IMG/VR virus record: IMGVR_UViG_2563366820_000002
Location: 1 to 47,800 of that record
Strand: one strand, 5' to 3'
Length of the DNA stretch: 47,800 bases
From: a virus
Lineage: Duplodnaviria; Heunggongvirae; Uroviricota; Caudoviricetes
Part shown: piece after piece, positions 1,426-46,993 of the stretch
Numbering within the stretch: the first letter of the stretch is position 1
Layout of the letters: every line of letters begins with the position of its first letter
The notes under the pieces: model-generated
Database searches by the model: none
What the model saw: only the letters and a program-made list of their open reading frames with translations
What the model was told of the DNA's origin: nothing
Made by a program: the position numbers and the translations under genes

Positions 1426-2489
1426 ATTTCAATTTTGTCCCACTCCCTGCCTCTGTCATCACGATACTGTGATGCCATGGTGTCCGACTTATGCCCGAGA
1501 AGATGTTGAGCAAACTTATCGCTTATCTGCTTCTCATAGAGTCTTGCAGACAAACTGCGCAACTCGTGAAAGGTAGGCGGATCCCCTTCGAAGGAAAGAC
1601 CTGATGCTTTTCGTGCGCGCATAAAATACCTTGATACTGTGCCGGATGAAAGCGGTTCACGACGAGTAGATGCAATTATGGTTTCTCCGCCAAGAATCTC
1701 TTTGCATTTATCAAGTGTTTCCTTCATTGATATCCCGAGGGCATCAACATGCAATGCTGTTGGGATGGCAATTTTTACGCCTGTTTTGCTTTGCTCGACA
1801 TAAAGATATCCATCTACGATATCAGACCACTTCATTTCGCATAAATCACCAACTCGCTGCCCGGTAACAACAGCCAGTTCCATTGCAAGTCTTAGCCAAC
1901 ATGGTGATGATTCTGCTGCTTGATAAATTTTCAGGTATTCGTCAGCCGTAAGTCTTGATCTCCTTACCTCTGATTTTGCTGCGCGAGTGGCAGCGACAGG
2001 GTTTGTTGTTATATGGCCTTCAGCTATTGCCTCTCGGAATGCATCGCTCAGTGTTGATCTGATTAACTTGGCTGACGCCGCCTTGCCCTCGTCTATGTAT
2101 CCATTGAGCATTGCCGCAATTTCTTTTGTGGTGATGTCTTCAAGTGGAGCATCAGGCAGACCCCTCCTTATTGCTTTAATTTTGCTCATGTAATTTATGA
2201 GTGTCTTCTGCTTGATTCCTCTGCTGGCCAGGATTTTTTCGTAGCGATCAAGCCATGAATGTAACGTAACGGAATTATCACTGTTGATTCTCGCTGTCAG
2301 AGGCTTGTGTTTGTGTCCTGAAAATAACTCAATGTTGGCCTGTATAGCTTCAGTGATTGCTATCCTCCTGTCTCGGCCTAATCCAAACTCTTTACCCGTC
2401 CTTGGGTCCCTGTAGCAGTAATATCCATTGTTTCTTATATAAAGGTTAGGGGGTAAATCCCGGCGCTCATGACTTCGCCTTCTTCCCAT
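1419..2489 (-). CDS. int: Integrase (tyrosine recombinase), lambda Int
   Basis: 356-aa translation matches lambda Int as I recall it (MGRRRSHERRDLPPNLYIRNNGYYCYRDPRTGKEFGLG...); ATG at 2489. Confidence 0.95.
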   Translation of the reverse strand: MGRRRSHERRDLPPNLYIRNNGYYCYRDPRTGKEFGLGRDRRIAITEAIQANIELFSGHKHKPLTARINSDNSVTLHSWLDRYEKILASRGIKQKTLINYMSKIKAIRRGLPDAPLEDITTKEIAAMLNGYIDEGKAASAKLIRSTLSDAFREAIAEGHITTNPVAATRAAKSEVRRSRLTADEYLKIYQAAESSPCWLRLAMELAVVTGQRVGDLCEMKWSDIVDGYLYVEQSKTGVKIAIPTALHVDALGISMKETLDKCKEILGGETIIASTRREPLSSGTVSRYFMRARKASGLSFEGDPPTFHELRSLSARLYEKQISDKFAQHLLGHKSDTMASQYRDDRGREWDKIEIK

Positions 2490-2685
2490 TTCTGATCCTC
2501 TTCAAAAGGCTACCTGTTACTGGTCGATTTAAGTCAACCTTTACCGCTGATTCGTGGAACAGATACTCTCTTCCATCCTTAACCGGAGGAGGGAATATCC
2601 TGCATTCGCGCACCCATCGACGAACTGTTTCAAGGCTTCTTGGGCGTCGCTGGCGAGCGTTCCACTCCTGAAGTGTCAAGTACAT
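2467..2685 (-). CDS. xis: Excisionase, lambda Xis
   Basis: 72-aa product MYLTLQEWNARQRRPRSLETVRRWVRE... from the internal ATG at 2685 (track ORF extends to 2724); overlaps int; GGAG RBS. Confidence 0.9.
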   Translation of the reverse strand: MYLTLQEWNARQRRPRSLETVRRWVRECRIFPPPVKDGREYLFHESAVKVDLNRPVTGSLLKRIRNGKKAKS

Positions 2686-2710
2686 CGCAAAGTCTCCGCA
2701 ATTACACGCA

Positions 2711-2733
2711 AGAAAAAGCCGCATTGATGCGGC
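2711..2733 (-). terminator. Intrinsic terminator upstream of xis (leftward operon)
   Basis: Hairpin GCCGCA-TTGA-TGCGGC followed on the minus strand by TTTTTCTT. Confidence 0.5.
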
Positions 2734-2789
2734 GATGGTAGGTCTGGATATCTTGAGAAATGAACAGGCCTCATCGAGTGTGAGGCGGG

Positions 2790-3134
2790 TTAGTCCTTGC
2801 GTAGCTCGATGATTCTTCTGTAAGTCTCTGGTGCTTTGTTCCCGTACGTCTTCATTTCAGACTTCAACAGAGCAACGAGTGAATCCCATTCGTTGAGGAT
2901 TCCTTTGAATGCCGGAACGCGCTTTGCAACCTTGTCGAATGAATCTCTGATTTCTGGAATCTGCTCAACAAGTGCAACGCATCGTCGGAAGTCTGCTACG
3001 TCATGTGGAGCGCCGAAGTGATGACCATAGATATTCTTTTTCAGTCCACATGCGATTGAGGCAAGAGTTGCGCTACTGATGCCAACATCGCCAGTCGATT
3101 GCCATTTCAAAACCTTCATAGCCAAATCTGACAT
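2790..3134 (-). CDS. Hypothetical early protein, 114 aa
   Basis: ATG at 3134 with GGAG RBS; no family recognised. Confidence 0.6.
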   Translation of the reverse strand: MSDLAMKVLKWQSTGDVGISSATLASIACGLKKNIYGHHFGAPHDVADFRRCVALVEQIPEIRDSFDKVAKRVPAFKGILNEWDSLVALLKSEMKTYGNKAPETYRRIIELRKD

Positions 3135-3206
3135 TTCTTGTCTCCATAAAACAAAACCCGCCGTAGCGAGTTCAGATAAAAGAAATCCCCGCGAGTGCGA
3201 GGATTG

Positions 3207-3491
3207 TTATTCATTGCCGATATTCACCTTTATCGCGAACACCTTTACCGGTTTATCGCCGAAGTGCGGATGTGTGATTGTCTTGATTTCATATCCGTCA
3301 TACGGGACGTCAATTCTTCGGCTGGAATCGTCGCGCTTCGGATATCCCTTTGTGATAATCAGGCGGTCATACTCCCGGAACATAATTCGCTTATTCCAGT
3401 AGTCATTACACAGGCGATACTCTTCCGTTTTCTCGCCTGACTTCATCTGGTCGAAATATTCACCGTTAACTGCCAGTTGAAGGTTAGCCAC
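3207..3491 (-). CDS. ASCH/PUA-like (DUF3850-type) protein, 94 aa
   Basis: GTG start at 3491 with strong AAGGAGG RBS, overlapping the stop of the upstream gene; composition resembles DUF3850 proteins. Confidence 0.6.
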   Translation of the reverse strand: MANLQLAVNGEYFDQMKSGEKTEEYRLCNDYWNKRIMFREYDRLIITKGYPKRDDSSRRIDVPYDGYEIKTITHPHFGDKPVKVFAIKVNIGNE

Positions 3492-3969
3492 GGTTAACCT
3501 CCTTCGGCGGTTCTGGTAGCGGCATCCAGTGGGTTACATTGCGGCTCTGCGTTTCGAAGAACTCCTCACCATTGCGGACGACATCAAAAAATTCACCGTC
3601 TCGATATTGCGCATAAAGAACGAATGCGCCATCACATAAAATAATTACGTGCTGACCATCATCAGGCATTCGCTCACTACAGCTTATCCAACCATCCGGA
3701 GTTACCGGCACTGGCTGGGCGGTGTAAAGTGGAACAACTCGCCCTCCCCATTGCTTAACACTACTCTCAGCGAACACTAAATGCTCAGTCCGATAATACC
3801 CAGGGGCATCAATATCTTTTCTTTCGCTATCCCACATGTAAACCACCGGTTCTGCTTCCAGTGATGCCAGTGCAATTCGTGCCAGTTCCATTTGTTCGCC
3901 ACGAGTAAGTCCGTTTTCAAGCGGATTTTTAATGAACAATTCAATACGTTCTTTGGTAATAGAATTCAT
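3484..3969 (-). CDS. DUF551-type phage protein, 161 aa
   Basis: C-terminal ...THWMPLPEPPK signature of DUF551; N-terminal module shared with ORF 4164-4613. Confidence 0.7.
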   Translation of the reverse strand: MNSITKERIELFIKNPLENGLTRGEQMELARIALASLEAEPVVYMWDSERKDIDAPGYYRTEHLVFAESSVKQWGGRVVPLYTAQPVPVTPDGWISCSERMPDDGQHVIILCDGAFVLYAQYRDGEFFDVVRNGEEFFETQSRNVTHWMPLPEPPKEVNRG

Positions 3970-3970
3970 G

Positions 3971-4162
3971 CTATTTCACCTTAATCTCAACATTTCGCAG
4001 CTTTAGCTCTACTGGCAGGTCTGACTTTCCGGTTAATGCCAATGCGAGATTTTCTGGAGTAATGAGAGCAGTTATTGTTTTCCCCCTCGCCAGACGAATA
4101 ATCATTCGTATATCGCAATCGTCACATACTCCCGGTCGAACAATTGATATTTGTCCATTCAT
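3971..4162 (-). CDS. Hypothetical small protein, 63 aa
   Basis: ATG at 4162 with AAGGAG RBS; the track start at 4183 is a TTG. Confidence 0.5.
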   Translation of the reverse strand: MNGQISIVRPGVCDDCDIRMIIRLARGKTITALITPENLALALTGKSDLPVELKLRNVEIKVK

Positions 4163-4163
4163 C

Positions 4164-4613
4164 TCACGCTCCTTTGATGCCAATGTTTACAGCCTGGCAA
4201 GCCTCTTTGAGCACCCAGTCAACAGCGTCTTTCCATGCTCCGGTTTCGACTGGCGGATTTTCACGCTTAACCTGTTCATAGAAGCGCACTGCTTTAACCA
4301 GTCCTTCTGATGTCACCGGGACTGGCGGGGCAGTGAATAAGGCCTGAATCTCATAGCTCGGCCTGTCGTTGCAATCCTCTTTTGTCGGTACATATTTCCA
4401 GTCACCAACCCACGAATCCCCCTGAGAGTCCGTAACACCTTTTTTCACGTAGCGATATCGCCACGCGACTGGCTCTGCTTCCAACGATGCCAGCGCGATA
4501 CGAAACACATCAGCAAGCAGACTGTTTGATGATTGGTTATCGTGCGCCGGGTCGCTCAGGAAGCCAGTGATGAATGATTTAATCTCCGCGCTTTCTCTGG
4601 TAATGGTGGTCAT
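4164..4613 (-). CDS. Hypothetical early protein, 150 aa, N-terminal module paralogous to 3484-3969
   Basis: ATG at 4613 (MTTITRES...); shares the ...RIALASLEAEPV... block with the DUF551 protein but has a different C-terminus. Confidence 0.65.
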   Translation of the reverse strand: MTTITRESAEIKSFITGFLSDPAHDNQSSNSLLADVFRIALASLEAEPVAWRYRYVKKGVTDSQGDSWVGDWKYVPTKEDCNDRPSYEIQALFTAPPVPVTSEGLVKAVRFYEQVKRENPPVETGAWKDAVDWVLKEACQAVNIGIKGA

Positions 4614-9261: not shown

Positions 9262-9630
9262 TCAGGCGGCTTTGATAGTCATATCATCTGAATCAAATAT
9301 TCCTGATGTGTCGATATCGGTAATTCTTATTCCTTCGCTACCATCCATTGGAGGCCATCCTTCCTGACCATTTCCATCATCCCAGTCGAACTCACAAACA
9401 ACACCATATGCATTTAAGTCTTTCGAAATTGCTATAAGCAGAGCATGTTGCGCCAGCATGATTAATACAGCATTTAATACAGCGCCGTGTTTATTGAGTC
9501 GGTATTCAGAGTCTGACCAGAAATTATTAATCTGGTGAAGTTTTTCCTCTGTCATTACGTCATGGTCGATTTCAATTTCTATTGATGCTTTCCAGTCGTA
9601 ATCAATGATGTATTTTTTGATGTTTGACAT
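9262..9630 (-). CDS. Hypothetical protein, 122 aa (same length and position as lambda Ea10, unverified)
   Basis: ATG at 9630 with GAGGA RBS. Confidence 0.6.
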   Translation of the reverse strand: MSNIKKYIIDYDWKASIEIEIDHDVMTEEKLHQINNFWSDSEYRLNKHGAVLNAVLIMLAQHALLIAISKDLNAYGVVCEFDWDDGNGQEGWPPMDGSEGIRITDIDTSGIFDSDDMTIKAA

Positions 9631-9824: not shown

Positions 9825-10274
9825 TCACTTAACCAATGATGCTGCATATTCGATAAGGTAAAGCTTTGGGGCCAGCCAAATTTTTAACCAAGTCATATTG
9901 GTTACTACACCAATAATAAAAATCCCCCACAGAGTCAAAACTCCAACCAATGGCATGATAAGAAGGTTAATATCTCCTTTGCTATCCCAAACCATTGTCG
10001 GCCTGTATTTGGGATTTCCCCTCTCCCATGAGTATCCTTCATCACCGATTTTACCTGTCTCAACTCTTTGGCACTGCTTCTTCATAAACCAGAAAACCAG
10101 TGGGATTGTTAGAATGGCTATTAATGTTTTAATCAGACTGTCAACCATATTCCATAGCAGCAACTGATGAACAACATCAGGAATCTGCGCTTGGCTGAAT
10201 GAAACAGCCGCGTCTATTCCATTGCTGGCTTTTTGCAGTAGTTCTACGAGAATCTTGTTTGCTTGTTCTTCCAT
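9825..10274 (-). CDS. Membrane protein, 149 aa (possible superinfection-exclusion type)
   Basis: ATG at 10274 with AGGGGA RBS; hydrophobic helices (LIAILTIPLVFWF, LLIMPLVGVLTLWGIFIIGVV); own terminator downstream. Confidence 0.7.
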   Translation of the reverse strand: MEEQANKILVELLQKASNGIDAAVSFSQAQIPDVVHQLLLWNMVDSLIKTLIAILTIPLVFWFMKKQCQRVETGKIGDEGYSWERGNPKYRPTMVWDSKGDINLLIMPLVGVLTLWGIFIIGVVTNMTWLKIWLAPKLYLIEYAASLVK

Positions 10275-10333: not shown

Positions 10334-10534
10334 TCAGGCAGCCTTGTTATTCTGTTTACCAAGTTCTCTGGCAATCATTGCCGTTGTTCGTATTGCCCAT
10401 TTATCGACATATTTCCCATCCTCCATTACAGGAAACATTTCTTCAGGCTTAACCATGCATTCCGATTGCAGCTTGCATCCATTGCATCGCTTGAATTGTC
10501 CACACCATTGATTTTTATCAATAGTCGTAGTCAT
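10334..10534 (-). CDS. Ral-like restriction-alleviation protein, 66 aa
   Basis: Cys-rich CGQFKRCNGCKLQSEC; same length as lambda ral and adjacent to N; assignment from memory and position. Confidence 0.5.
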   Translation of the reverse strand: MTTTIDKNQWCGQFKRCNGCKLQSECMVKPEEMFPVMEDGKYVDKWAIRTTAMIARELGKQNNKAA

Positions 10535-10604
10535 ACGGATAGTCCTGGTATTGTTCCATCACATCCTGCGGATGCTCTTCGAACTCTTCAAATTCTTCTT
10601 CCAT
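10518..10604 (-). CDS. Highly acidic 28-aa peptide ORF (MEEEFEEFEEHPQDVMEQYQDYPYDYDY)
   Basis: ATG at 10604 with GAGGTG RBS 8 nt after the N stop; overlaps the Ral-like start. Confidence 0.4.
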   Translation of the reverse strand: MEEEFEEFEEHPQDVMEQYQDYPYDYDY

Positions 10605-10612
10605 ATCTCACC

Positions 10613-10912
10613 TCAAATAAGTGGTTTGCTGCCTAATTTCATTTTCTGGCGACCAACACAAGTCACACCCATTTCACTGCGTGGCTTGCGGTAGTAAATA
10701 CGGTTCTGTTTACGCTCGACTTCTTCTGCCTTCTTGCAGCGAAGGCCTCCGAGTGATGCTGCTTTATCTGCTCTTACGCAACCAGAGAGCTTTAGCGCAA
10801 TTTTTCGCGCCAGTCTCTGCTCTTGCATTGCCTGTTCACGTTGAGCCTGCCTGCGTGCTCTGCGGCGATTTCTGGTGTTATCGTCAGCCAGATATGTAAT
10901 GACTACTGTCAT
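10613..10912 (-). CDS. N: Antitermination protein N (phage 21-like)
   Basis: Arginine-rich motif NTRNRRRARRQAQREQ near the N-terminus and C-terminus ...GVTCVGRQKMKLGSKPLI resembling lambda N ...GITCSGRQKIKGKSIPLI; GGAGG RBS. Confidence 0.8.
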   Translation of the reverse strand: MTVVITYLADDNTRNRRRARRQAQREQAMQEQRLARKIALKLSGCVRADKAASLGGLRCKKAEEVERKQNRIYYRKPRSEMGVTCVGRQKMKLGSKPLI

Positions 10913-11019
10913 GTTGACCTCCGATGATTGACTTTGGCGGTGACGCGCCGGGTGCTTATCTTCCGGTTGCCGTCGGGCAGCTGCACTTCACGTCACCCCA
11001 AAGCCAACTACTCTTTGGT

Positions 11020-11060
11020 TCCCGCATTTCGGCGGGACAATCCCATCAATGTTAAAGAGC
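11020..11060 (-). promoter_or_regulatory. nutL (boxA GCTCTTTAAC, boxB hairpin)
   Basis: Minus-strand boxA 11051-11060 followed by boxB UCCCGC-CGAAAU-GCGGGA at 11020-11037; boxB is identical to the one at nutR. Confidence 0.75.
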
Positions 11061-11104
11061 CTGCCAATCTGTTCCGTTTGGCTACCAGCGTCCTGCTGAT
11101 GGCT

Positions 11105-11195
11105 AAAGAATACTGTAGGTATTTTATTGTGTAAATACCCAAGGTATTTATTTTTGATGAAATAATGATAAACAAATGAATACAAAGGATATTTA
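11105..11195 (-). promoter_or_regulatory. pL promoter with OL operators
   Basis: Minus-strand -35 TTTACA (11130-11135), 17-bp spacer, -10 TATTCT (11107-11112); 15-bp AATAC-N5-GTATT sites at 11109-11123 and 11134-11148, weaker at 11179-11193. Confidence 0.65.
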
Positions 11196-11279
11196 TTTTT
11201 TCGGTGTCTGCTTGTTCAGTGCTTTTTATGCGGGATATGTGAAGTGGATCCCGATAGCTATTGCTGCCGGGATTATGGG

Positions 11280-11648
11280 TTAGTCAGCGAAGGTTAAGAC
11301 GAGAATTACCTTAATGATGTCTGCTACAACAGACACGGCCATAGATAAACCAAAGACGATCCAAGCCATAGAGATGTCTTCACTACCATCGTATAGAGTT
11401 CCGTAATCACTGGTGTAAGGCGTAAATGTCGCGCCTTGATACAATAGGTATAAGCTTGATCCATAGAGGATAAATGCAGATATCCCTTGTATTGCTATGA
11501 TCACCAGAATCATGAAACGAGCTGATCTATGCGCCCAAGCCTGGCTTATTTTTTCTGATAGAGATTTCGCAATAAAAGCATGCGCTAAGCCGTAAATTGT
11601 CGATATTGCCAACATCCCCAAAAAGCTTGCTATAGCGGTTCCAACCAT
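11280..11648 (-). CDS. Membrane protein, 122 aa, downstream of cI in the lambda rexAB slot
   Basis: ATG at 11648 with AAGGGG RBS 17 nt after the cI stop (track start 11669 is TTG); three predicted transmembrane helices. Confidence 0.7.
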   Translation of the reverse strand: MVGTAIASFLGMLAISTIYGLAHAFIAKSLSEKISQAWAHRSARFMILVIIAIQGISAFILYGSSLYLLYQGATFTPYTSDYGTLYDGSEDISMAWIVFGLSMAVSVVADIIKVILVLTFAD

Positions 11649-11665
11649 ATTCGCCCCTTGCGTGA

Positions 11666-12382
11666 TCAAACCAGCCTTAGTTTTGTCTCAATTGCAACGC
11701 CTATAATCTTGCAGTTTCCATTGATTGGCACGAGAGGCCATGCAGGATTAAGTCCCTTGAGGTATTTATTCCCGCCGTCGATTATCAGCTTCTTGAATGT
11801 TGCTTCGTTAGAGTCAGAAAGTTTTGCTATGACCAAGCTGCCGTTGATCGCCTCCCTTCCGGTATCGAAAAGAACGAATGTTCCCTCTGGAATGCTTAAC
11901 CCAACCGGTGCCGTCATTGAATCACCTTCCACTTTAAGCCAGAACGCATTACCTTGAATATGCGCGTCAGACTCAAGCCAAACATCTATGTCTTTAATGG
12001 TGTATGGTTCGCATGCTTCACACCACGAGCCAGCCTGGATACTGCTTAACACCGGATACCTCTTTCCTGCTCTGTATTCCCCTGCATACCTTACGTTGGC
12101 ATCGCTCTTAAGGCTTTCTGCCTGTTCTGCAACCTTGGCAGCAATTGACTGGCTAAAATCAGCAATTGAGACTTGCAACAATCGTGCAAAACCAGATGCA
12201 ACCTCAACGTTTAGCGCGTTTCTGCCATTAAGATAATGCCCTACCGCTCCTTGGGTGATACCCAGTTCATCAGCAATTGAATATTGGGTTATTCCCAATT
12301 CTTTCTTTTTTGACTCATACAAAGCCTTAAGCCGCTTAGCGTCTTCGAGCTGTTCTGTCGTCAGTGATTTTTTATTTTCCAT
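11666..12382 (-). CDS. cI: CI repressor (HTH plus S24 LexA-like autopeptidase domain)
   Basis: 238 aa; N-terminus LTTEQLEDAKRLKALYESKKKELGITQ parallels lambda CI; C-terminal domain has GDSM and FKKL catalytic motifs; divergent from cro. Confidence 0.9.
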   Translation of the reverse strand: MENKKSLTTEQLEDAKRLKALYESKKKELGITQYSIADELGITQGAVGHYLNGRNALNVEVASGFARLLQVSIADFSQSIAAKVAEQAESLKSDANVRYAGEYRAGKRYPVLSSIQAGSWCEACEPYTIKDIDVWLESDAHIQGNAFWLKVEGDSMTAPVGLSIPEGTFVLFDTGREAINGSLVIAKLSDSNEATFKKLIIDGGNKYLKGLNPAWPLVPINGNCKIIGVAIETKLRLV

Positions 12383-12388
12383 AGCTTA

Positions 12389-12459
12389 ATTCTAATAGCT
12401 AAGGTACTTAAACTAAAAATACCCTGAGTATTGATTGCTTTGAATACCTGTAGTATTCT
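12389..12459. promoter_or_regulatory. OR operators with divergent pRM and pR
   Basis: AATAC-N5-GTATT sites at 12394-12408, 12418-12432 and 12443-12457 (centres 24-25 bp apart); pR -35 TTGATT 12431-12436 and -10 TATTCT 12454-12459; pRM -10 TAGAAT on the minus strand at 12389-12394. Confidence 0.7.
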
Positions 12460-12488
12460 TTGTTCATGGTTAATAACGGAGAGTGCAT

Positions 12489-12683
12489 ATGATTCGAATG
12501 ACACTTGCCGATTACGCCAAAATCCATGGACAGGCTAAAGCAGCCAGTGACTTTGGTGTAATCCAGTGCGCTATCAGCAAGGCCATTCTGGCAGGCCGTA
12601 ACATCATGGTTACGGTAAAGCCTGATGGCAGTGTGATTGGAGAGGAAGTTCGTCCTTTCCCAAGCAACAAGAAAAACAAATAG
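12489..12683 (+). CDS. cro: Cro repressor
   Basis: [64 protein letters not shown] parallels lambda Cro; ATG at 12489 with GGAGAG RBS (track start 12483 is GTG). Confidence 0.9.
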
Positions 12684-12689
12684 TAACAC

Positions 12690-12733
12690 CGCTCTTTAAC
12701 AGTCATGGTCCTCATTCCCGCCGAAATGCGGGA
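12690..12733 (+). promoter_or_regulatory. nutR (boxA CGCTCTTTAA, boxB hairpin)
   Basis: boxA 12690-12699; boxB TCCCGC-CGAAAT-GCGGGA 12716-12733. Confidence 0.8.
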
Positions 12734-12791
12734 ATACAACGCGCATAAGTTGATGCGCATAACTTCTTATTTGTTAAGGAAATACTTACAT

Positions 12792-13085
12792 ATGGAACTT
12801 ACAAGTACTCGCAAGAAAGCGAATGCAATTACAAGCAACATCCTGAATAGAATTGCTGTACGTGGTCAGCGAAAGGTTGCCGACGCGTTAGGGATTAATG
12901 AATCGCAAATTTCGCGATGGAAAGACAGCTTCATCCCAAAAATGGGAATGCTTCTGGCTGTTCTTGAATGGGGCGTCGTTGACGACGATATGGCTCGATT
13001 GGCACGACAAGTTGCTTCGATTCTCACCAATAAAAAACGCCCGGCGGCAACCGAGCGTTCTGATCAAATCCAGATGGAGTTCTGA
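12792..13085 (+). CDS. cII: CII transcriptional activator
   Basis: 97 aa from ATG 12792; ...ESQISRWKDSFIPKMGMLLAVLEWGVVDDDMARLARQVASILTNKKRPAATERSDQIQMEF nearly identical to lambda CII over the C-terminal two thirds. Confidence 0.9.
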   Translation: MELTSTRKKANAITSNILNRIAVRGQRKVADALGINESQISRWKDSFIPKMGMLLAVLEWGVVDDDMARLARQVASILTNKKRPAATERSDQIQMEF

Positions 13086-13117
13086 GGTCATTACTGGATC
13101 AATCCACAGGAGTCATT

Positions 13118-13963
13118 ATGACAAATACAGCAAAAATACTCAACTTCGGCAGAGGTAACTTTGCCGAACAGGAGCTAAGAGTGGCTGATATCGATGATGG
13201 TTACACCAGATTCGCTAACGAGCTGCTGGAAGCTATCGCAAGTGCCGATTTAACCGCTCGCCAGTTGAAAGTTATGCTGGCCTACGTCCGGAAAACATAT
13301 GGCTTCAATAAGAAAACAGATCGAATAGCCGATGAGCAAATTGCTCAGTTAACAGGACTGTCAAGGCAGAATGTTAACAAGGCTAAAAAAGAACTGATTT
13401 CAATGAATTGCCTGTTTATGGATGGAAATAAAATCGGTGTAAACAGGGAGGTATCTGCGTGGCAATTCAGCAAGTGTCTCCAAGTTAGCAACTTTGTCTC
13501 GAAGTTAGAGACAAAAAATGTCTCCAAATTAGAGACACTCAATGTCTCGAAGTTAGAGACACACAAAAGACATTCTTTAAAGACAAAAGAAAATATTAAT
13601 AAACCCCCTATATCCCCCAAAAAAGTTTCTCAGAAGTTCGACCCGCTAGAAACAGAGTTGCCTGATTGGTTATCAGCAGAAACATGGTTGTCGTGGGTTA
13701 CCTATCGCAAGGAGATAGGTAAGTCGATCAAGTCTAAGCAAAGTGTCACTCAGGCTATCAACGTTCTAAGCAGAAGTCTGGAGAAGGGATATACACCTGA
13801 AGAAATTATAAACCAGAGCATCGCCAGTGGTTGGCAGGGGATTTTTGAGCCCAAGACTCCAAAGGGGAAATCTCAACCGAGGCCGCAGCATCGAGCTATG
13901 CAGGAAAACTTTGCCACCAAAGATTACGGACAAACTGAAATGCCTTCATGGGCGCAGGAGTGA
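13118..13963 (+). CDS. O: Replication initiator O
   Basis: N-terminus MTNTAKILNFGRGNFAEQELRVADIDDGYTRFANELLEA... parallels lambda O; origin iterons lie inside the gene. Confidence 0.9.
   Translation: MTNTAKILNFGRGNFAEQELRVADIDDGYTRFANELLEAIASADLTARQLKVMLAYVRKTYGFNKKTDRIADEQIAQLTGLSRQNVNKAKKELISMNCLFMDGNKIGVNREVSAWQFSKCLQVSNFVSKLETKNVSKLETLNVSKLETHKRHSLKTKENINKPPISPKKVSQKFDPLETELPDWLSAETWLSWVTYRKEIGKSIKSKQSVTQAINVLSRSLEKGYTPEEIINQSIASGWQGIFEPKTPKGKSQPRPQHRAMQENFATKDYGQTEMPSWAQE
13471..13561. repeat. Replication origin iterons (four ~19-bp repeats, 24-bp period) followed by an AT-rich segment
   Basis: TGTCTCGAAGTTAGAGACA at 13495-13513 and 13543-13561, TGTCTCCAAATTAGAGACA at 13519-13537, degenerate copy near 13474-13492; AT-rich stretch to about 13610. 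Confidence 0.85.
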
Positions 13964-19047: not shown

Positions 19048-19371
19048 ATGAAGATGCCAGAAAAACATGACCTGTTAGCCGCCATTCTCGCGGCAAAGGA
19101 ACAAGGCATCGGGGCAATCCTTGCGTTTGCAATGGCGTACCTTCGCGGCAGATATAATGGCGGTGCGTTTACAAAAACAGTAATCGACGCAACGATGTGC
19201 GCCATTATCGCCTGGTTCATTCGTGACCTTCTCGACTTCGCCGGACTAAGTAGCAATCTCGCTTATATAACGAGCGTGTTCATCGGCTACATCGGTACTG
19301 ACTCGATTGGTTCGCTTATCAAACGCTTCGCTGCTAAAAAAGCCGGAGTAGAAGATGGTGGAAATCAATAA
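19048..19371 (+). CDS. S: Holin/antiholin S (dual start)
   Basis: [39 protein letters not shown]... matches lambda S; Met1-Lys2-Met3 dual-start motif. Confidence 0.95.
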
Positions 19372-19831
19372 TCAACGTAAGGCGTTCCTCGATATGCTGG
19401 CGTGGTCAGAGGGAACTGATAACGGACGACAGAAAACCAGAAATCATGGTTATGACGTCATTGTTGGCGGAGAGCTATTCACTGATTACTCCGATCACCC
19501 TCGCAAACTTGTCACGCTAAACCCCAAACTCAAATCAACAGCCGCCGGACGTTACCAGCTTCTTTCCCGTTGGTGGGATGCCTACCGTAAGCAGCTTGGC
19601 CTGAAAGACTTCTCTCCTAAAAGCCAGGATGCTGTTGCATTGCAGCAGATTAAGGAGCGTGGCGCTTTGCCGATGATTGATCGCGGTGATATCCGTCAGG
19701 CTATCGACCGTTGCAGCAATATATGGGCTTCACTGCCGGGCGCTGGTTATGGTCAGTTCGAGCATAAGGCTGACAGTCTGATTGCAAAATTCAAAGAAGC
19801 TGGCGGAACGGTCAGAGAGATTGAGGTATGA
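19355..19831 (+). CDS. R: Endolysin R (lytic transglycosylase)
   Basis: [49 protein letters not shown]... matches lambda R. Confidence 0.95.
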
Positions 19832-20265
19832 GCAGAGTAACCGCGATTATCTCCGCTCTGGTTATCTGCATCGTCGTCTGCCTGTCATGGGGTGTTAATC
19901 ATTACCGTGATAACGCCATCGCCTACAAAGAACAGCGCGATAAGGCCGCATTCATTATCGCTGACATGCAGAAACGTCAACGCAATGTAGCAGAACTCGA
20001 CGCCAGATATACAAAGGAGCTTGCTGATGCTAACGCGACTATCGAAAGTCTCCGTGCTGATGTTTCTGCTGGTCGTAAGCGCATGCAAGTCGCCGCCACC
20101 TGTGCAAAGTCAACGACCGGAGCCAGCAGCATGGGCGATGGAGAAAGCCCAAGACTTACAGCAGATGCTGAACTCAATTATTACCGTCTACGAAGTGGAA
20201 TCGACAGGATAACCGCGCAGGTTAACTACCTGCAGGAGTACATCAGGACGCAATGCCTGAAATAA
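19828..20265 (+). CDS. Rz: i-spanin Rz
   Basis: N-terminal TM segment [21 protein letters not shown] as in lambda Rz; C-terminal half diverges from lambda. Confidence 0.85.
20021..20212 (+). CDS. Rz1: o-spanin Rz1 lipoprotein, embedded in the +1 frame of Rz
   Basis: Lipobox LVVSAC followed by proline-rich [11 protein letters not shown]; exact start among the upstream Met codons is uncertain. Confidence 0.7.
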
Positions 20266-36024: not shown

Positions 36025-36483
36025 TTAAAAGTTGCGATGGGATGGCGAAGCAATGGCAAAACCTCCAAGTGTTACCATTTCATCTCTAAAAGCCTTATCT
36101 TTAGCTGCTTTTTGTGCACCTGACATGATGTTCTTGTGAAAATAGTCTCTGAACTTGGCCTCTTCCTCGGATACATCTGGAGTAAAACGACCATAGTCAG
36201 ATTCAATCTTATCTAAAATTATGCTTGCAGTATTGGGCTTGAAGATTGAGTATGACAAAAAAACTCGACAATCATTCGCTTGTTCCATGACGAATTTTTT
36301 CATGTCATCAGGGTTAAATCTTCTTGATTCAGAAGCGTATTTTTGAGCCAACCCAATGCAAGCAATCTCAGCTTCCTTGGTGACATGATCTGGTGGAATA
36401 AGTCCTTCTTCTCCATGCGCCGAAGCTAAGAATAGCCAAGAGGAGATAATAGGAATGGCATAACGAATATATGATTTCTTCAT
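36025..36483 (-). CDS. Secreted/periplasmic protein with signal peptide, 152 aa
   Basis: N-terminal MKKSYIRYAIPIISSWLFLASAHG signal-like sequence; co-oriented with the upstream repressor gene. Confidence 0.65.
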   Translation of the reverse strand: MKKSYIRYAIPIISSWLFLASAHGEEGLIPPDHVTKEAEIACIGLAQKYASESRRFNPDDMKKFVMEQANDCRVFLSYSIFKPNTASIILDKIESDYGRFTPDVSEEEAKFRDYFHKNIMSGAQKAAKDKAFRDEMVTLGGFAIASPSHRNF

Positions 36484-36619
36484 ATTATAATCCTTGTGCT
36501 GTTTTTATGATTCTACCCATTAAATGAAGAAAAAACACGCAACACTCAGTTTTGTCCAGGATAGCATGTGACTCAAGGGAGCGCAGCCTACCTGGGTTGG
36601 TTAAGTGATTTCGTGCTTA

Positions 36620-37480
36620 TTACTTGTCTGGTGAGTGTTTATAACGGGCCTGTGAAAGGCTGTAGTTAGCTAACTTCTCAAGGCGCTCAGCAATTTCATC
36701 TAGTCGCTTAAGACGTTCGTCAAAGGGTGTATTCTTGTCAAATTTTGTATTTGACCAAAAATCTTGGCTAACCTTGTGTGCTTCCTCAACCAGTTTCTCT
36801 ACTTCGCTATGCGGCATTGGAGAGATAAGTTTTTCCCTCTTGATTCGAAACTGAGAATGAATAGCCACGCCAACAACCTCGATAAAATCAGGTTGGAACA
36901 TGGGGTATAAAGGGTTAAGTGACTTAAGGTAGATTTGGCGCTGATCCAGTATAAACTGCTTAAATACAGCCTCAGAATTATCATTTAGCACACACATCAC
37001 AAAGTCACCAGAAACAGCCTTTAGCGATGAATCGAAAGTTACGATTGTTCCAGGGGGAAAGCTAATCCCATCACCGGAAGACATGGATTCACCTTGTATT
37101 TCAACGGCAAAACAGTATTCATTGGCTTCAGGAGGGGCTGGAATAAAGTCCTTTATAGCAGCAGTCTTTAGTAAATCATCTAGCGATTCAAATCTTGCCT
37201 GTACGTGTGTTAGCACAGGAATCTCGCGCACAGTAACAGTTCTCTTGACACTGCTAACGTCAGGGCCATCTCCTTTCCCTTGCGTAAGCCATTCAGTGGT
37301 AGTTCCCAATGCAGCTGCAAGGTTTTGAAGTGCCTTTTCTCTTGGTTTAGCTTCCCCACCCTCGTAAGCAGCGATCTGTCTGGGTACCACGCCTACTTTC
37401 TTGGCAAGCTCGGATTGAGTCAAACCGATGGAGTTGCGCGCTATGGCAACTCGTTTAGAAAAAGAATCATCAAAACTCAT
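36620..37480 (-). CDS. LexA/CI-type repressor: HTH-XRE plus S24 autopeptidase domain with a ~70-aa C-terminal extension
   Basis: N-terminal IGLTQSELAKKVGVVPRQIAAYEGG helix-turn-helix; GESM serine motif and FKQF lysine motif; 286 aa. Confidence 0.8.
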   Translation of the reverse strand: MSFDDSFSKRVAIARNSIGLTQSELAKKVGVVPRQIAAYEGGEAKPREKALQNLAAALGTTTEWLTQGKGDGPDVSSVKRTVTVREIPVLTHVQARFESLDDLLKTAAIKDFIPAPPEANEYCFAVEIQGESMSSGDGISFPPGTIVTFDSSLKAVSGDFVMCVLNDNSEAVFKQFILDQRQIYLKSLNPLYPMFQPDFIEVVGVAIHSQFRIKREKLISPMPHSEVEKLVEEAHKVSQDFWSNTKFDKNTPFDERLKRLDEIAERLEKLANYSLSQARYKHSPDK

Positions 37481-45973: not shown

Positions 45974-46993
45974 ATGCAACATTCATTAGCAATGAAAAAC
46001 TGCGCAGGTAGTCATGAAATGAGAAAAATAAGTAATGTAATTTTTGATAGAGATCACACCATTGAACTAAAAGGCGTTGCTATTCTCCTTGTCATGCTTG
46101 GGCATGTAAATGTAATCCCGCACGCCGGGGCATATGGTGTTGCTCTATTCCTTATGCTGTCAGGCTTTGGCCTTGTGCAATCTTACATTAAATCAGGGTT
46201 GGATTCTTTTTTTTCAAAAAGGCTATCAAAAGTACTTGTTCCATACGCTATTATAACCATTGTTTGGATTATTGCTTTTGGACATCCAGCAATTACAAAT
46301 GATGACTTTTATCATTTAGCGATTACCATACTAGGCATTGATTTGAATGCCACTATAGATCCTAGTATGTGGTATATATCTTTTATAATAATATGGTATC
46401 TGGCTTTTTTTCTAATTTTTAGCGCTAATATCTCTATTAATATTAAAATAGCCTTCCTTTTCCTTTTTTCTGTATTGCTTTACAAAAACGCAGATATATT
46501 CCCTCCTCCAGCAGGTGCCGGACTATACGTTGCTGCATTTCCACTAGGTTCACTAATTGGAGTGGTGTATGAAAAAGTCAAAGGATATGCAATAGATAAA
46601 TGGATATTACTTTTGTTTGTCATAGTTTCTTTGGTGTCCTTAATTTTATCCCTTTATTTTTATAAAGGGATTGATGTTAGTTTTTTTGACTATGCAGCAA
46701 CAAATATAGCAAGCGCATTTCTTATAATTGGAATTACATCGATTCTTAGAGTTGCAAATATAAACATAACACCATTGAAATTTGTTGGCATACTATCTTA
46801 CGAGATGTATCTTATAGAATTCATGTTTTTGATGAAAGCATACCATTTATTATCGTTTATAAGTTCAGATGGGATAAAATCCGTCTTGTTTGTTGTAATT
46901 GTTTGTATTTTTGCATACGTATATAAATACGTACTTTCAATAGTTTTTAAAGCGCTCAGGAAGGCATTACCAAACTCAAAAATATATACTTAG
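45974..46993 (+). CDS. Acyltransferase-3 family integral membrane protein (putative surface-polysaccharide O-acetylase)
   Basis: Multi-pass hydrophobic protein with N-terminal ...RDHTIELKGVAILLVMLGH... motif; start among ATGs at 45974/45992/46019 uncertain. Confidence 0.75.
   Translation: MQHSLAMKNCAGSHEMRKISNVIFDRDHTIELKGVAILLVMLGHVNVIPHAGAYGVALFLMLSGFGLVQSYIKSGLDSFFSKRLSKVLVPYAIITIVWIIAFGHPAITNDDFYHLAITILGIDLNATIDPSMWYISFIIIWYLAFFLIFSANISINIKIAFLFLFSVLLYKNADIFPPPAGAGLYVAAFPLGSLIGVVYEKVKGYAIDKWILLLFVIVSLVSLILSLYFYKGIDVSFFDYAATNIASAFLIIGITSILRVANINITPLKFVGILSYEMYLIEFMFLMKAYHLLSFISSDGIKSVLFVVIVCIFAYVYKYVLSIVFKALRKALPNSKIYT

Follow-up and report, generated by a model that had tools for sequence, protein, structure and literature searches.

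HkaS, a predicted three-helix membrane protein encoded behind the cI repressor of a lambdoid prophage and a possible lysogen defence factor

What is the role of the small, presumably membrane-bound protein that some lambdoid prophages of enterobacteria encode directly behind their repressor gene? The question is raised here by a 47,800-nucleotide stretch of Caudoviricetes DNA (IMG/VR record IMGVR_UViG_2563366820_000002, positions 1 to 47,800; hereafter the window), in which the gene hkaS follows the repressor gene cI. Lysogens of lambdoid phages transcribe the slot between cI and the left operators (OL), from which RexAB, BstA, Stk and Hex are already known. According to Owen et al. (PMC8585504), mosaic diversity has a hotspot in the cI-N region, where lambda carries rexAB and BTP1 carries bstA. 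RexAB, 933W Stk and 434 Hex are accessory proteins encoded on the pRM transcript, and 434 Hex protects the repressor from RecA-stimulated cleavage (Shkilnyj et al., PMC3564112). Both papers present the cI-OL slot itself as a hotspot of accessory and defence genes that lysogens express (PMC8585504; PMC3564112). A first-pass annotation of the window graded hkaS a 'strong candidate' for superinfection exclusion or abortive infection. We regard such a role as a reasonable prior and the grading as overstated, since cargo without a defence role, such as 434 Hex, is found in the slot as well. The answer that we favour, tentatively, is that HkaS may provide defence of some kind at the inner membrane, protecting the lysogen from other phages. 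This proposed function is drawn from the position of the gene and the predicted architecture of its product only, and a block of phage entry as the specific mechanism is considered less probable than a membrane defence of some kind.

The mechanically defined open reading frame (ORF) extends over 11280..11669 on the minus strand and would encode 129 amino acids from a TTG codon. Its first ATG is found at 11648 and delimits a coding sequence of 122 amino acids plus stop (11280..11648, minus strand). We take this ATG, and not the TTG, as the true start of hkaS because an in-frame TAA directly precedes the ATG in the Salmonella homologue. The TGA stop codon of cI occupies positions 11668-11666 and the gap to the hkaS ATG measures exactly 17 nt (11665-11649), so that both figures of the first-pass annotation, an ORF of 122 amino acids and a start 17 nt past the cI stop, are exact. 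A Shine-Dalgarno sequence, AAGGGG, can be read 5 nt 5' of the ATG (11654..11659, minus strand). The ribosome-binding site had been said to overlap the end of cI; at 11659-11654 it is in fact located wholly inside the gap. Homologous loci retain a gap of 17-20 nt with AAGGA or AAAGGA as Shine-Dalgarno sequence.

The length of the ORF by itself is not beyond chance, as antisense ORFs of about 100 amino acids are present nearby. That hkaS is a genuine coding gene is argued instead by the ratio of nonsynonymous to synonymous substitution rates (dN/dS), which amounts to 0.14-0.20 in comparisons with homologues where synonymous sites approach saturation without reaching it, by a full-length match of the product to PHROG 6534 ('unknown function'; E 1.1e-78, with residues 1-122 aligned to positions 1-122 of the profile) and by conserved synteny; a translated product that AlphaFold2 could model is consistent with this assignment. 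The reading frame and the length of 122 amino acids are kept in homologues that are 55-82% identical, with 43-56 invariant residues depending on the alignment. The dS of hkaS equals that of the adjoining cI, and both genes therefore diverged together, while dN is about four times higher in hkaS than in cI. The gene is already catalogued and is not new as a sequence feature: in addition to its PHROG entry, hkaS was annotated in 2001 in coliphage HK620, whose HkaS (AAK28867.1) has the same length of 122 amino acids and displays 96.7% amino acid identity over 120 of the 122 residues. The product is called 'unknown' in every record.

The HkaS protein carries three hydrophobic segments, at approximately residues 1-27, 45-70 and 94-122. 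Its AlphaFold2 model, built from six sequences only, comprises helices at residues 2-29, 31-38, 41-74 and 89-121 and a beta-hairpin at 78-86, with a mean predicted local distance difference test score (pLDDT) of 91.6 and a predicted template modelling score (pTM) of 0.78. The three transmembrane helices announced by the first-pass annotation are borne out by the three hydrophobic segments and the three long helices of this model, and a topology check points to an N-out/C-in orientation. The loop at residues 28-44 is net positive (K28, K33, R41, R44) and contains a short amphipathic helix; the loop at residues 71-93 has a net charge of -4 (D81, D87, E90, D91), is devoid of basic residues and harbours the family signature YLLYQGATFxPYxSxYG, modelled as the beta-hairpin. 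By the positive-inside rule, applied to these loop charges, HkaS is predicted to be a three-pass inner-membrane protein oriented N-out/C-in. Under this prediction, the N-terminus and the conserved, acidic, Tyr/Gly-rich hairpin loop of 23 residues would be periplasmic and the cytoplasm would receive only the basic loop of about 17 residues. The C-terminus of the protein coincides with the end of helix 3 (...LVLTFAD). Invariant polar residues are found inside the helices (Q54, S106, D110 and K113), and mean pairwise identity reaches 0.73 in the cytoplasmic loop versus 0.64 in the periplasmic loop.

When would such a protein be made? An immunity region of the lambda type is laid out on the minus strand of the window, and its operon begins with cI (11666..12382, minus strand), encoding a repressor of 238 amino acids with Pfam helix-turn-helix (HTH_3) and Peptidase_S24 domains. 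The 17-nt gap that separates cI from hkaS is too short for a promoter or a terminator, and a consensus scan of the minus strand from the right operators (OR) to pL detected no promoter-like or terminator-like site besides pL itself. Transferring the HK620 annotation to the window with an offset of +9220 places tIMM, the terminator of the cI transcript according to the HK620 record, downstream of hkaS (11168..11198, minus strand). In addition, a -10-like TAGAAT is situated six bases ahead of the cI ATG, which suggests that the cI mRNA is leaderless as in lambda. Taken together, the lack of room in the gap, the empty scan, the location of tIMM 3' of hkaS and the -10-like element of a presumably leaderless cI mRNA lead us to infer that hkaS is co-transcribed with cI and that HkaS would be produced whenever cI is.

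The association of hkaS with cI was followed in loci from Escherichia coli, Salmonella, Hafnia and Buttiauxella and in an unassigned metagenome contig (L020). Every locus examined presents cro, a divergent cI, hkaS after 17-20 nt, roughly 350 nt of spacer (655 nt in L020) and N, and this gene order is constant although the flanking replication and N modules differ among loci. In the window and in all related loci examined, hkaS is invariably found immediately 3' of an S24-type cI and upstream of OL/pL and N. Among complete E. coli genomes, hkaS and the window-type cI each occur in 146 genomes at 147 places; these are totals, the two sets not having been matched genome by genome. All 16 phage records with a window-type cI carry hkaS. 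The E. coli EC3 prophage (NZ_CP060979) is a distinct P22-like element that has only the immunity module in common with the window. In the Buttiauxella locus (CBCPKK010000004.1; L027 1833-2869), the C-terminal domain of the repressor is about 90% identical to that of the window cI and HkaS is 55% identical, while the N-terminal HTH domain is unrelated and cro is different. Since cI 3' half and hkaS are both kept where the DNA-binding domain and cro have been replaced, the two appear to move together, with a recombination joint inside the Buttiauxella cI and the 3' half of cI plus hkaS as the travelling unit.

This association has its limits, and the contents of the slot vary. Phage CharmingMan encodes a cI C-terminal domain 77% identical to that of the window without hkaS. 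Phages with the next-closest repressors have different contents at this place: nothing in Serratia phage OS31 (cI 71% identical), an unrelated soluble protein of 200 amino acids in Erwinia phage 49 (cI 65% identical), and again nothing in P22. Elsewhere its cargo is rexAB, in lambda, or hex, in 434.

A word-indexed search of 5.8 billion proteins retrieved 11 HkaS clusters, all of them enterobacterial, and an exhaustive profile hidden Markov model search of 1.84 billion representative proteins added one cluster, a fragment and a spurious match to a repeat protein. The latter, P0014, is a metagenomic protein of 5,949 amino acids that displays, over residues ~2378-4481, nine identical repeats with SATFQTYSSGYTTLYEWKGANQIDVRW, each of which bears a weak resemblance of about 7 bits to the periplasmic loop of HkaS; it was rejected as a relative and the match was judged chance or compositional, because repetition inflates a 7-bit motif by counting it nine times. 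No significant family emerged from Pfam, NCBIfam and PADLOC scans of HkaS. A sub-threshold Pfam match to Cation_ATPase_C (19 bits) was attributed to transmembrane composition, and a match to TssN was weaker and likewise below threshold. Three fold searches returned generic helical bundles only and no known relative outside the HkaS family, and hhalign comparisons with lambda RexB, P22 SieA, the P22 holin gp13 and 434 Hex all gave probabilities below 1%. No functional study of hkaS was found in the literature on hkaS, HK620, mEpX2 and the slot and defence topics. By these searches, HkaS constitutes a small, enterobacterial orphan family. The gene was encountered in one of 185,579 species-representative genomes, a Buttiauxella, in 146 of 5,426 complete E. 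coli genomes (~2.7%) and in 16 phage records at 92-100% amino acid identity. Its carriers include HK620, HK630, HK140, mEpX2, HZ41, HF4s, phi296, phi367, 611R6 and two Shiga toxin (Stx) 2c-converting phages, and the host genera beyond E. coli are Salmonella, Hafnia, Enterobacter and Buttiauxella.

Variation within E. coli was analysed in six genomes together with the window. The cI protein is identical in all of them, the HK620 cI differing at one residue, and HkaS differs in nearly every one. Ten of 122 positions are variable in HkaS versus one of 238 in cI, and the ratio of nonsynonymous to synonymous polymorphism (pN/pS) is 0.37 versus 0.02. The replacements in HkaS are for the most part conservative and map to the helices or to the junction of the loop with helix 3, and none within E. 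coli touches the core of the periplasmic loop. In phage HF4s (MT833387; L026 1183-1570), a one-base deletion in a run of six A (window 11547-11552) truncates HkaS after residue 33. As this phage is viable, hkaS is unnecessary for plaque formation. Four further database variants (P0005, P0008, P0009 and P0013) have a scrambled N-terminus or a protein truncated at the same place as in HF4s, and the A6 run looks like a site of recurrent inactivation resembling phase variation, or else a hotspot of sequencing errors. These patterns are those of an accessory gene under moderate constraint; they are not those of a core regulator, nor obviously of an arms-race interface.

How could such a protein serve a lysogen? 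We propose that pRM would drive hkaS together with cI in lysogens, as pRE would while lysogeny is being established, and that HkaS would be translated from its own Shine-Dalgarno sequence. The protein would then protect the lysogen at the inner membrane against incoming phages, the most probable mechanism being a hindrance to genome entry or to a membrane component that these phages need, in the manner of P22 SieA, T4 Imm or HK97 gp15. Exclusion is suggested by the precedents of the slot (rexAB, bstA, hex and stk) together with a three-helix architecture offering little cytoplasmic mass. It is placed at the inner membrane because the window holds no RexA-like partner and the protein is predicted to be membrane-buried or to face the periplasm; a channel of the RexB type, opened in response to a sensor in the cytoplasm, seems less likely. 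Several observations weigh against a defence role. Homology lends no support to anti-phage activity, be it in the PADLOC, Pfam and NCBIfam scans or in hhalign (<1%), and the fold searches yield generic helical bundles only. Non-defence cargo, in the form of 434 Hex, is also found in the slot. The cytoplasmic loop is conserved at least as well as the periplasmic one, so that a cytoplasmic partner is possible. Amino acid polymorphism in E. coli is mostly conservative, resides in the helices and is not concentrated in the exposed loop. Finally, the expression of the hkaS module from pRM is itself something that we infer. A bolder version, according to which HkaS founds a new family, orphan in sequence and in fold, of single-protein, three-helix inner-membrane prophage defence factors, acting either through a hairpin-mediated block to the genome entry of various phages or as an abortive-infection effector without sensor, appears doubtful at present.

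The same position and architecture can be read in other ways. HkaS might be a lysogenic-conversion factor unrelated to phage that makes the host immune to a pore-forming colicin or microcin, helps it to withstand envelope stress or modulates one of its transporters. Immunity proteins against pore-forming colicins and microcins typically have the form of small inner-membrane proteins with three helices, which is also the form predicted for HkaS. The gene is also spread over many E. coli lineages and hosts, Stx2c phages included, and the prophage bears other cargo of the conversion type, an O-acetyltransferase-like gene at 45974-46993. However, HkaS has no Pfam match to colicin-immunity or other families and hkaS adjoins no toxin gene, and we consider such a role unlikely, if conceivable. 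The notion that hkaS is a decaying or functionless remnant hitch-hiking with cI could invoke the frameshifted copies (HF4s and the variants P0005, P0008, P0009 and P0013) and the E. coli pN/pS of 0.37, far above that of cI. A remnant would nevertheless hardly have kept its frame, its length of 122 amino acids and 43-56 invariant residues in the face of saturated synonymous sites, with dN/dS at 0.14-0.20, nor a conserved Shine-Dalgarno sequence and gap, and a confident AlphaFold2 model was obtained from six sequences only; we give this explanation very little credence.

Two further possibilities keep HkaS within phage biology. It could be a stand-alone abortive-infection effector that permeabilises the membrane in the way of RexB or a holin, infection leading to oligomerisation, collapse of the membrane potential and death. 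Occupation of the rexAB slot and the match with class I holin topology (three helices, N-out/C-in) would agree with this, and the invariant polar residues Q54, S106, D110 and K113 might line a pore. Yet the window contains no RexA-like sensor and the protein itself offers merely 17 cytoplasmic residues for sensing; homology to RexB or to class I holins is not detected, nor is the charged C-terminal tail of a holin; and a pore-former made constitutively in lysogens would require tight control, none of which is evident. Such an effector is accordingly quite improbable in our view. About equally improbable is a factor of lysogeny stability that, like Hex, would modulate RecA-stimulated cleavage of cI or prophage induction. 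This proposal draws on 434 Hex, whose gene resides in that slot and shares the pRM transcript, and which protects its own repressor (PMC3564112). It draws also on the Buttiauxella locus, where hkaS stays with the C-terminal domain of cI, responsible for cleavage and oligomerisation, though the DNA-binding domain and cro are swapped, and on the cytoplasmic loop being the most conserved segment of HkaS. But mere adjacency to the 3' end of cI accounts for the linkage without functional coupling, and CharmingMan has a cI C-terminal domain 77% identical and yet no hkaS. A polytopic membrane protein that exposes a loop of only 17 residues to the cytoplasm would moreover be an improbable binder of RecA or cI, and there is no homology to Hex. 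Defence at the inner membrane is the reading that we retain, with the reservations expressed above.

The remainder of the immunity region conforms to the lambda plan. The window cI is 43% identical to lambda cI and 99.6-100% identical to the cI of HK620, mEpX2, HK140 and HK630. The right operators, located by an operator-consensus search and by the HK620 annotation, lie between 12393 and 12458 (OR3 12393-12409, OR2 12417-12433, OR1 12442-12458) together with pR and a putative pRM, the latter being absent from the HK620 annotation; cro follows at 12489-12683 on the plus strand. The operator-consensus search produced eight matches against 2.35 expected by chance, six of the eight falling in the immunity region. 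The left edge of the operon (11100..11149, minus strand) holds pL, OL1 (11108-11124) and OL2 (11133-11149), supported by the promoter scan, operator matches and the HK620 annotation, with a promoter-like TTTACA-17-TATTCT at 11135..11107. Beyond it are nutL (11020-11061), read from the sequence, and the N antiterminator gene, first of the pL operon (10613..10912, minus strand; PHROG 271, E 1e-35, and HK620 annotation). An Rfam search of 10500-13200 returned nothing credible. Just past the hkaS stop, RNA folding predicts a stable hairpin, CCCGGCAGCAAUAGCUAUCGGG (11248..11273, minus strand), which is not a canonical intrinsic terminator because it is without a U-tract. The Hafnia locus has a hairpin with an identical stem in the equivalent place, and in the Salmonella loci, from an alignment read by eye, a hairpin of differing sequence follows hkaS.

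The segment between hkaS and pL contains two other particularities. The OL3 annotated in HK620 (TTATCATTATTTCATCA, window 11155-11171) does not resemble an operator, and an operator-like 17-mer, GAATACAAAGGATATTT (11178-11194), lies inside the tIMM segment with three mismatches to the consensus AAATACCNNNGGTATTT; this block has stayed unchanged in modules that have otherwise diverged. In the HK620 annotation, the third left operator may be mis-assigned, the candidate at 11178-11194 overlapping the annotated tIMM. A hydrophobic ORF of 35 amino acids, MNTKDIYFFGVCLFSAFYAGYVKWIPIAIAAGIMG (11176-11283, plus strand), converges on hkaS and is annotated in some phage records (for example HF4s_0039). 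It was considered as a partner or antitoxin of hkaS and rejected, since in the modules of Salmonella and Hafnia its frame runs into a stop after 10-12 codons. This ORF is probably not a gene, and the conservation of its start is attributable to the overlapping operator-like site.

Outside the immunity region, the prophage is by its gene content a mosaic, lambdoid in its early part and myovirus-like in its late part. Parts of P22-like, Sf6-like and Stx phages match the early-left region at 91-98% identity, no single record covering more than 43% of it. Genes for a contractile tail (sheath PHROG 205, baseplate wedge PHROG 6) are found in the late region (22000-46900), for which hardly any nucleotide match exists among 50,697 phage records, the best one reaching 13% coverage at 70% identity. 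Two uncharacterised genes lie beyond N in the pL operon, at 9825-10274 and 9262-9630, both on the minus strand; one of the two products has 149 amino acids and predicted transmembrane segments (PHROG 3054, labelled 'TM helix-containing protein' in HF4s), and the other is a DUF2528 protein. Inside the tail-gene region, in reverse orientation, lies another cI-like repressor gene with a downstream ORF (36025-37480, minus strand): the repressor comprises 286 amino acids (HTH_3 and Peptidase_S24, PHROG 4) and is followed after 136 nt by an ORF of 152 amino acids without family match, making up a further cassette of repressor and uncharacterised gene, possibly of moron or defence type. Near the right end of the window, the O-acetyltransferase-like gene already mentioned (45974-46993, plus strand; PHROG 3333, E 6.5e-14) is likely, by sequence, an O-antigen-modifying lysogenic-conversion gene.

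To a specialist of lambdoid phages, the existence and position of hkaS will be unsurprising, and the gene, a compact and widespread cargo of the slot, offers a cheap and sensible experimental target. If a single membrane protein of 122 amino acids suffices for exclusion, it would represent a new family of defence or superinfection exclusion; exclusion by HkaS, if true, would matter for phage therapy and for how Stx phages spread. Should HkaS instead affect prophage induction, the stability of Stx lysogens would be concerned.

The closest counterpart of the window gene is found in HK620: the two hkaS are the same gene, sharing the position between cI and OL with tIMM annotated downstream. Their surroundings differ, the module being carried here by a prophage with a contractile-tail late region and there by a P22-like podophage. 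The comparison with lambda is more distant. The first-pass annotation had presented hkaS as replacing rexA-rexB, and this holds for the slot, from cI to OL/pL; it does not hold for homology to RexB, for the number of helices or for the RexA partner. Like hkaS, rexB lies between cI and OL/pL on the pRM transcript. RexB of lambda has four helices in 144 amino acids, versus three in 122 for HkaS. Both are small polytopic inner-membrane proteins, by prediction in the case of HkaS, and RexB is made in lysogens (PMC8585504). The hhalign probability for RexB is 0.28%, and tblastn of RexB against the window gave no match at E<1. RexB moreover pairs with the adjacent rexA sensor, whereas hkaS stands only 17 nt from cI and the window has no RexA homologue; nor were homologues of RexB, SieA, SieB or Hex found within it.

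In predicted architecture, P22 SieA is the best analogue of HkaS. Expressed from the prophage, it has three predicted transmembrane helices in the inner membrane and blocks DNA injection without a partner protein (PMC10883804), and the three-helix inner-membrane architecture is the one predicted for HkaS. The two nonetheless differ in sequence (hhalign probability 0.25%), in size and in motif content, SieA having 162-164 amino acids and the conserved cytoplasmic motif FxRYPxEAxxFNK (PMC10883804), which is absent from HkaS. They differ also in location, sieA being placed in the immI/late region with its own promoter and hkaS behind the repressor gene. Class I holins (lambda S, P22 gp13) share three transmembrane helices in N-out/C-in orientation with the predicted form of HkaS, without homology (hhalign probability 0.31% for P22 gp13). 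They possess a charged cytoplasmic C-terminal tail whereas HkaS ends at helix 3, and they sit in the lysis cassette whereas hkaS belongs to the immunity operon; the lysis genes of the window are presumably, from their position, the ORFs near 19048-20265.

Parallels in genetic organisation are provided by 434 Hex and BTP1 BstA. Hex, like HkaS, is encoded by a single accessory gene directly 3' of cI, and hex is co-transcribed from pRM (PMC3564112). The resemblance ends there: the hhalign probability is 0.05%, so that the comparison with RexB and other cI-linked proteins advised by the first-pass annotation disclosed homology neither to RexB (0.28%) nor to Hex, and Hex consists of an N-terminal signal-like segment and a hydrophilic body where HkaS has three transmembrane helices. 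BstA is likewise cargo 3' of a prophage repressor gene; it acts in defence and presumably shares the promoter of the repressor (PMC8585504). In these respects, HkaS fits the class of pRM-operon accessory, moron-like genes: hkaS is on the cI strand and directly 3' of cI, the scan revealed no intervening promoter or terminator, the gene is dispensable, and the slot is variable among phages whose cI are 65-71% identical. With its expression in lysogens put forward on the grounds of this layout, HkaS would take its place beside RexAB, Stk, Hex and BstA as a new orphan member of that class.

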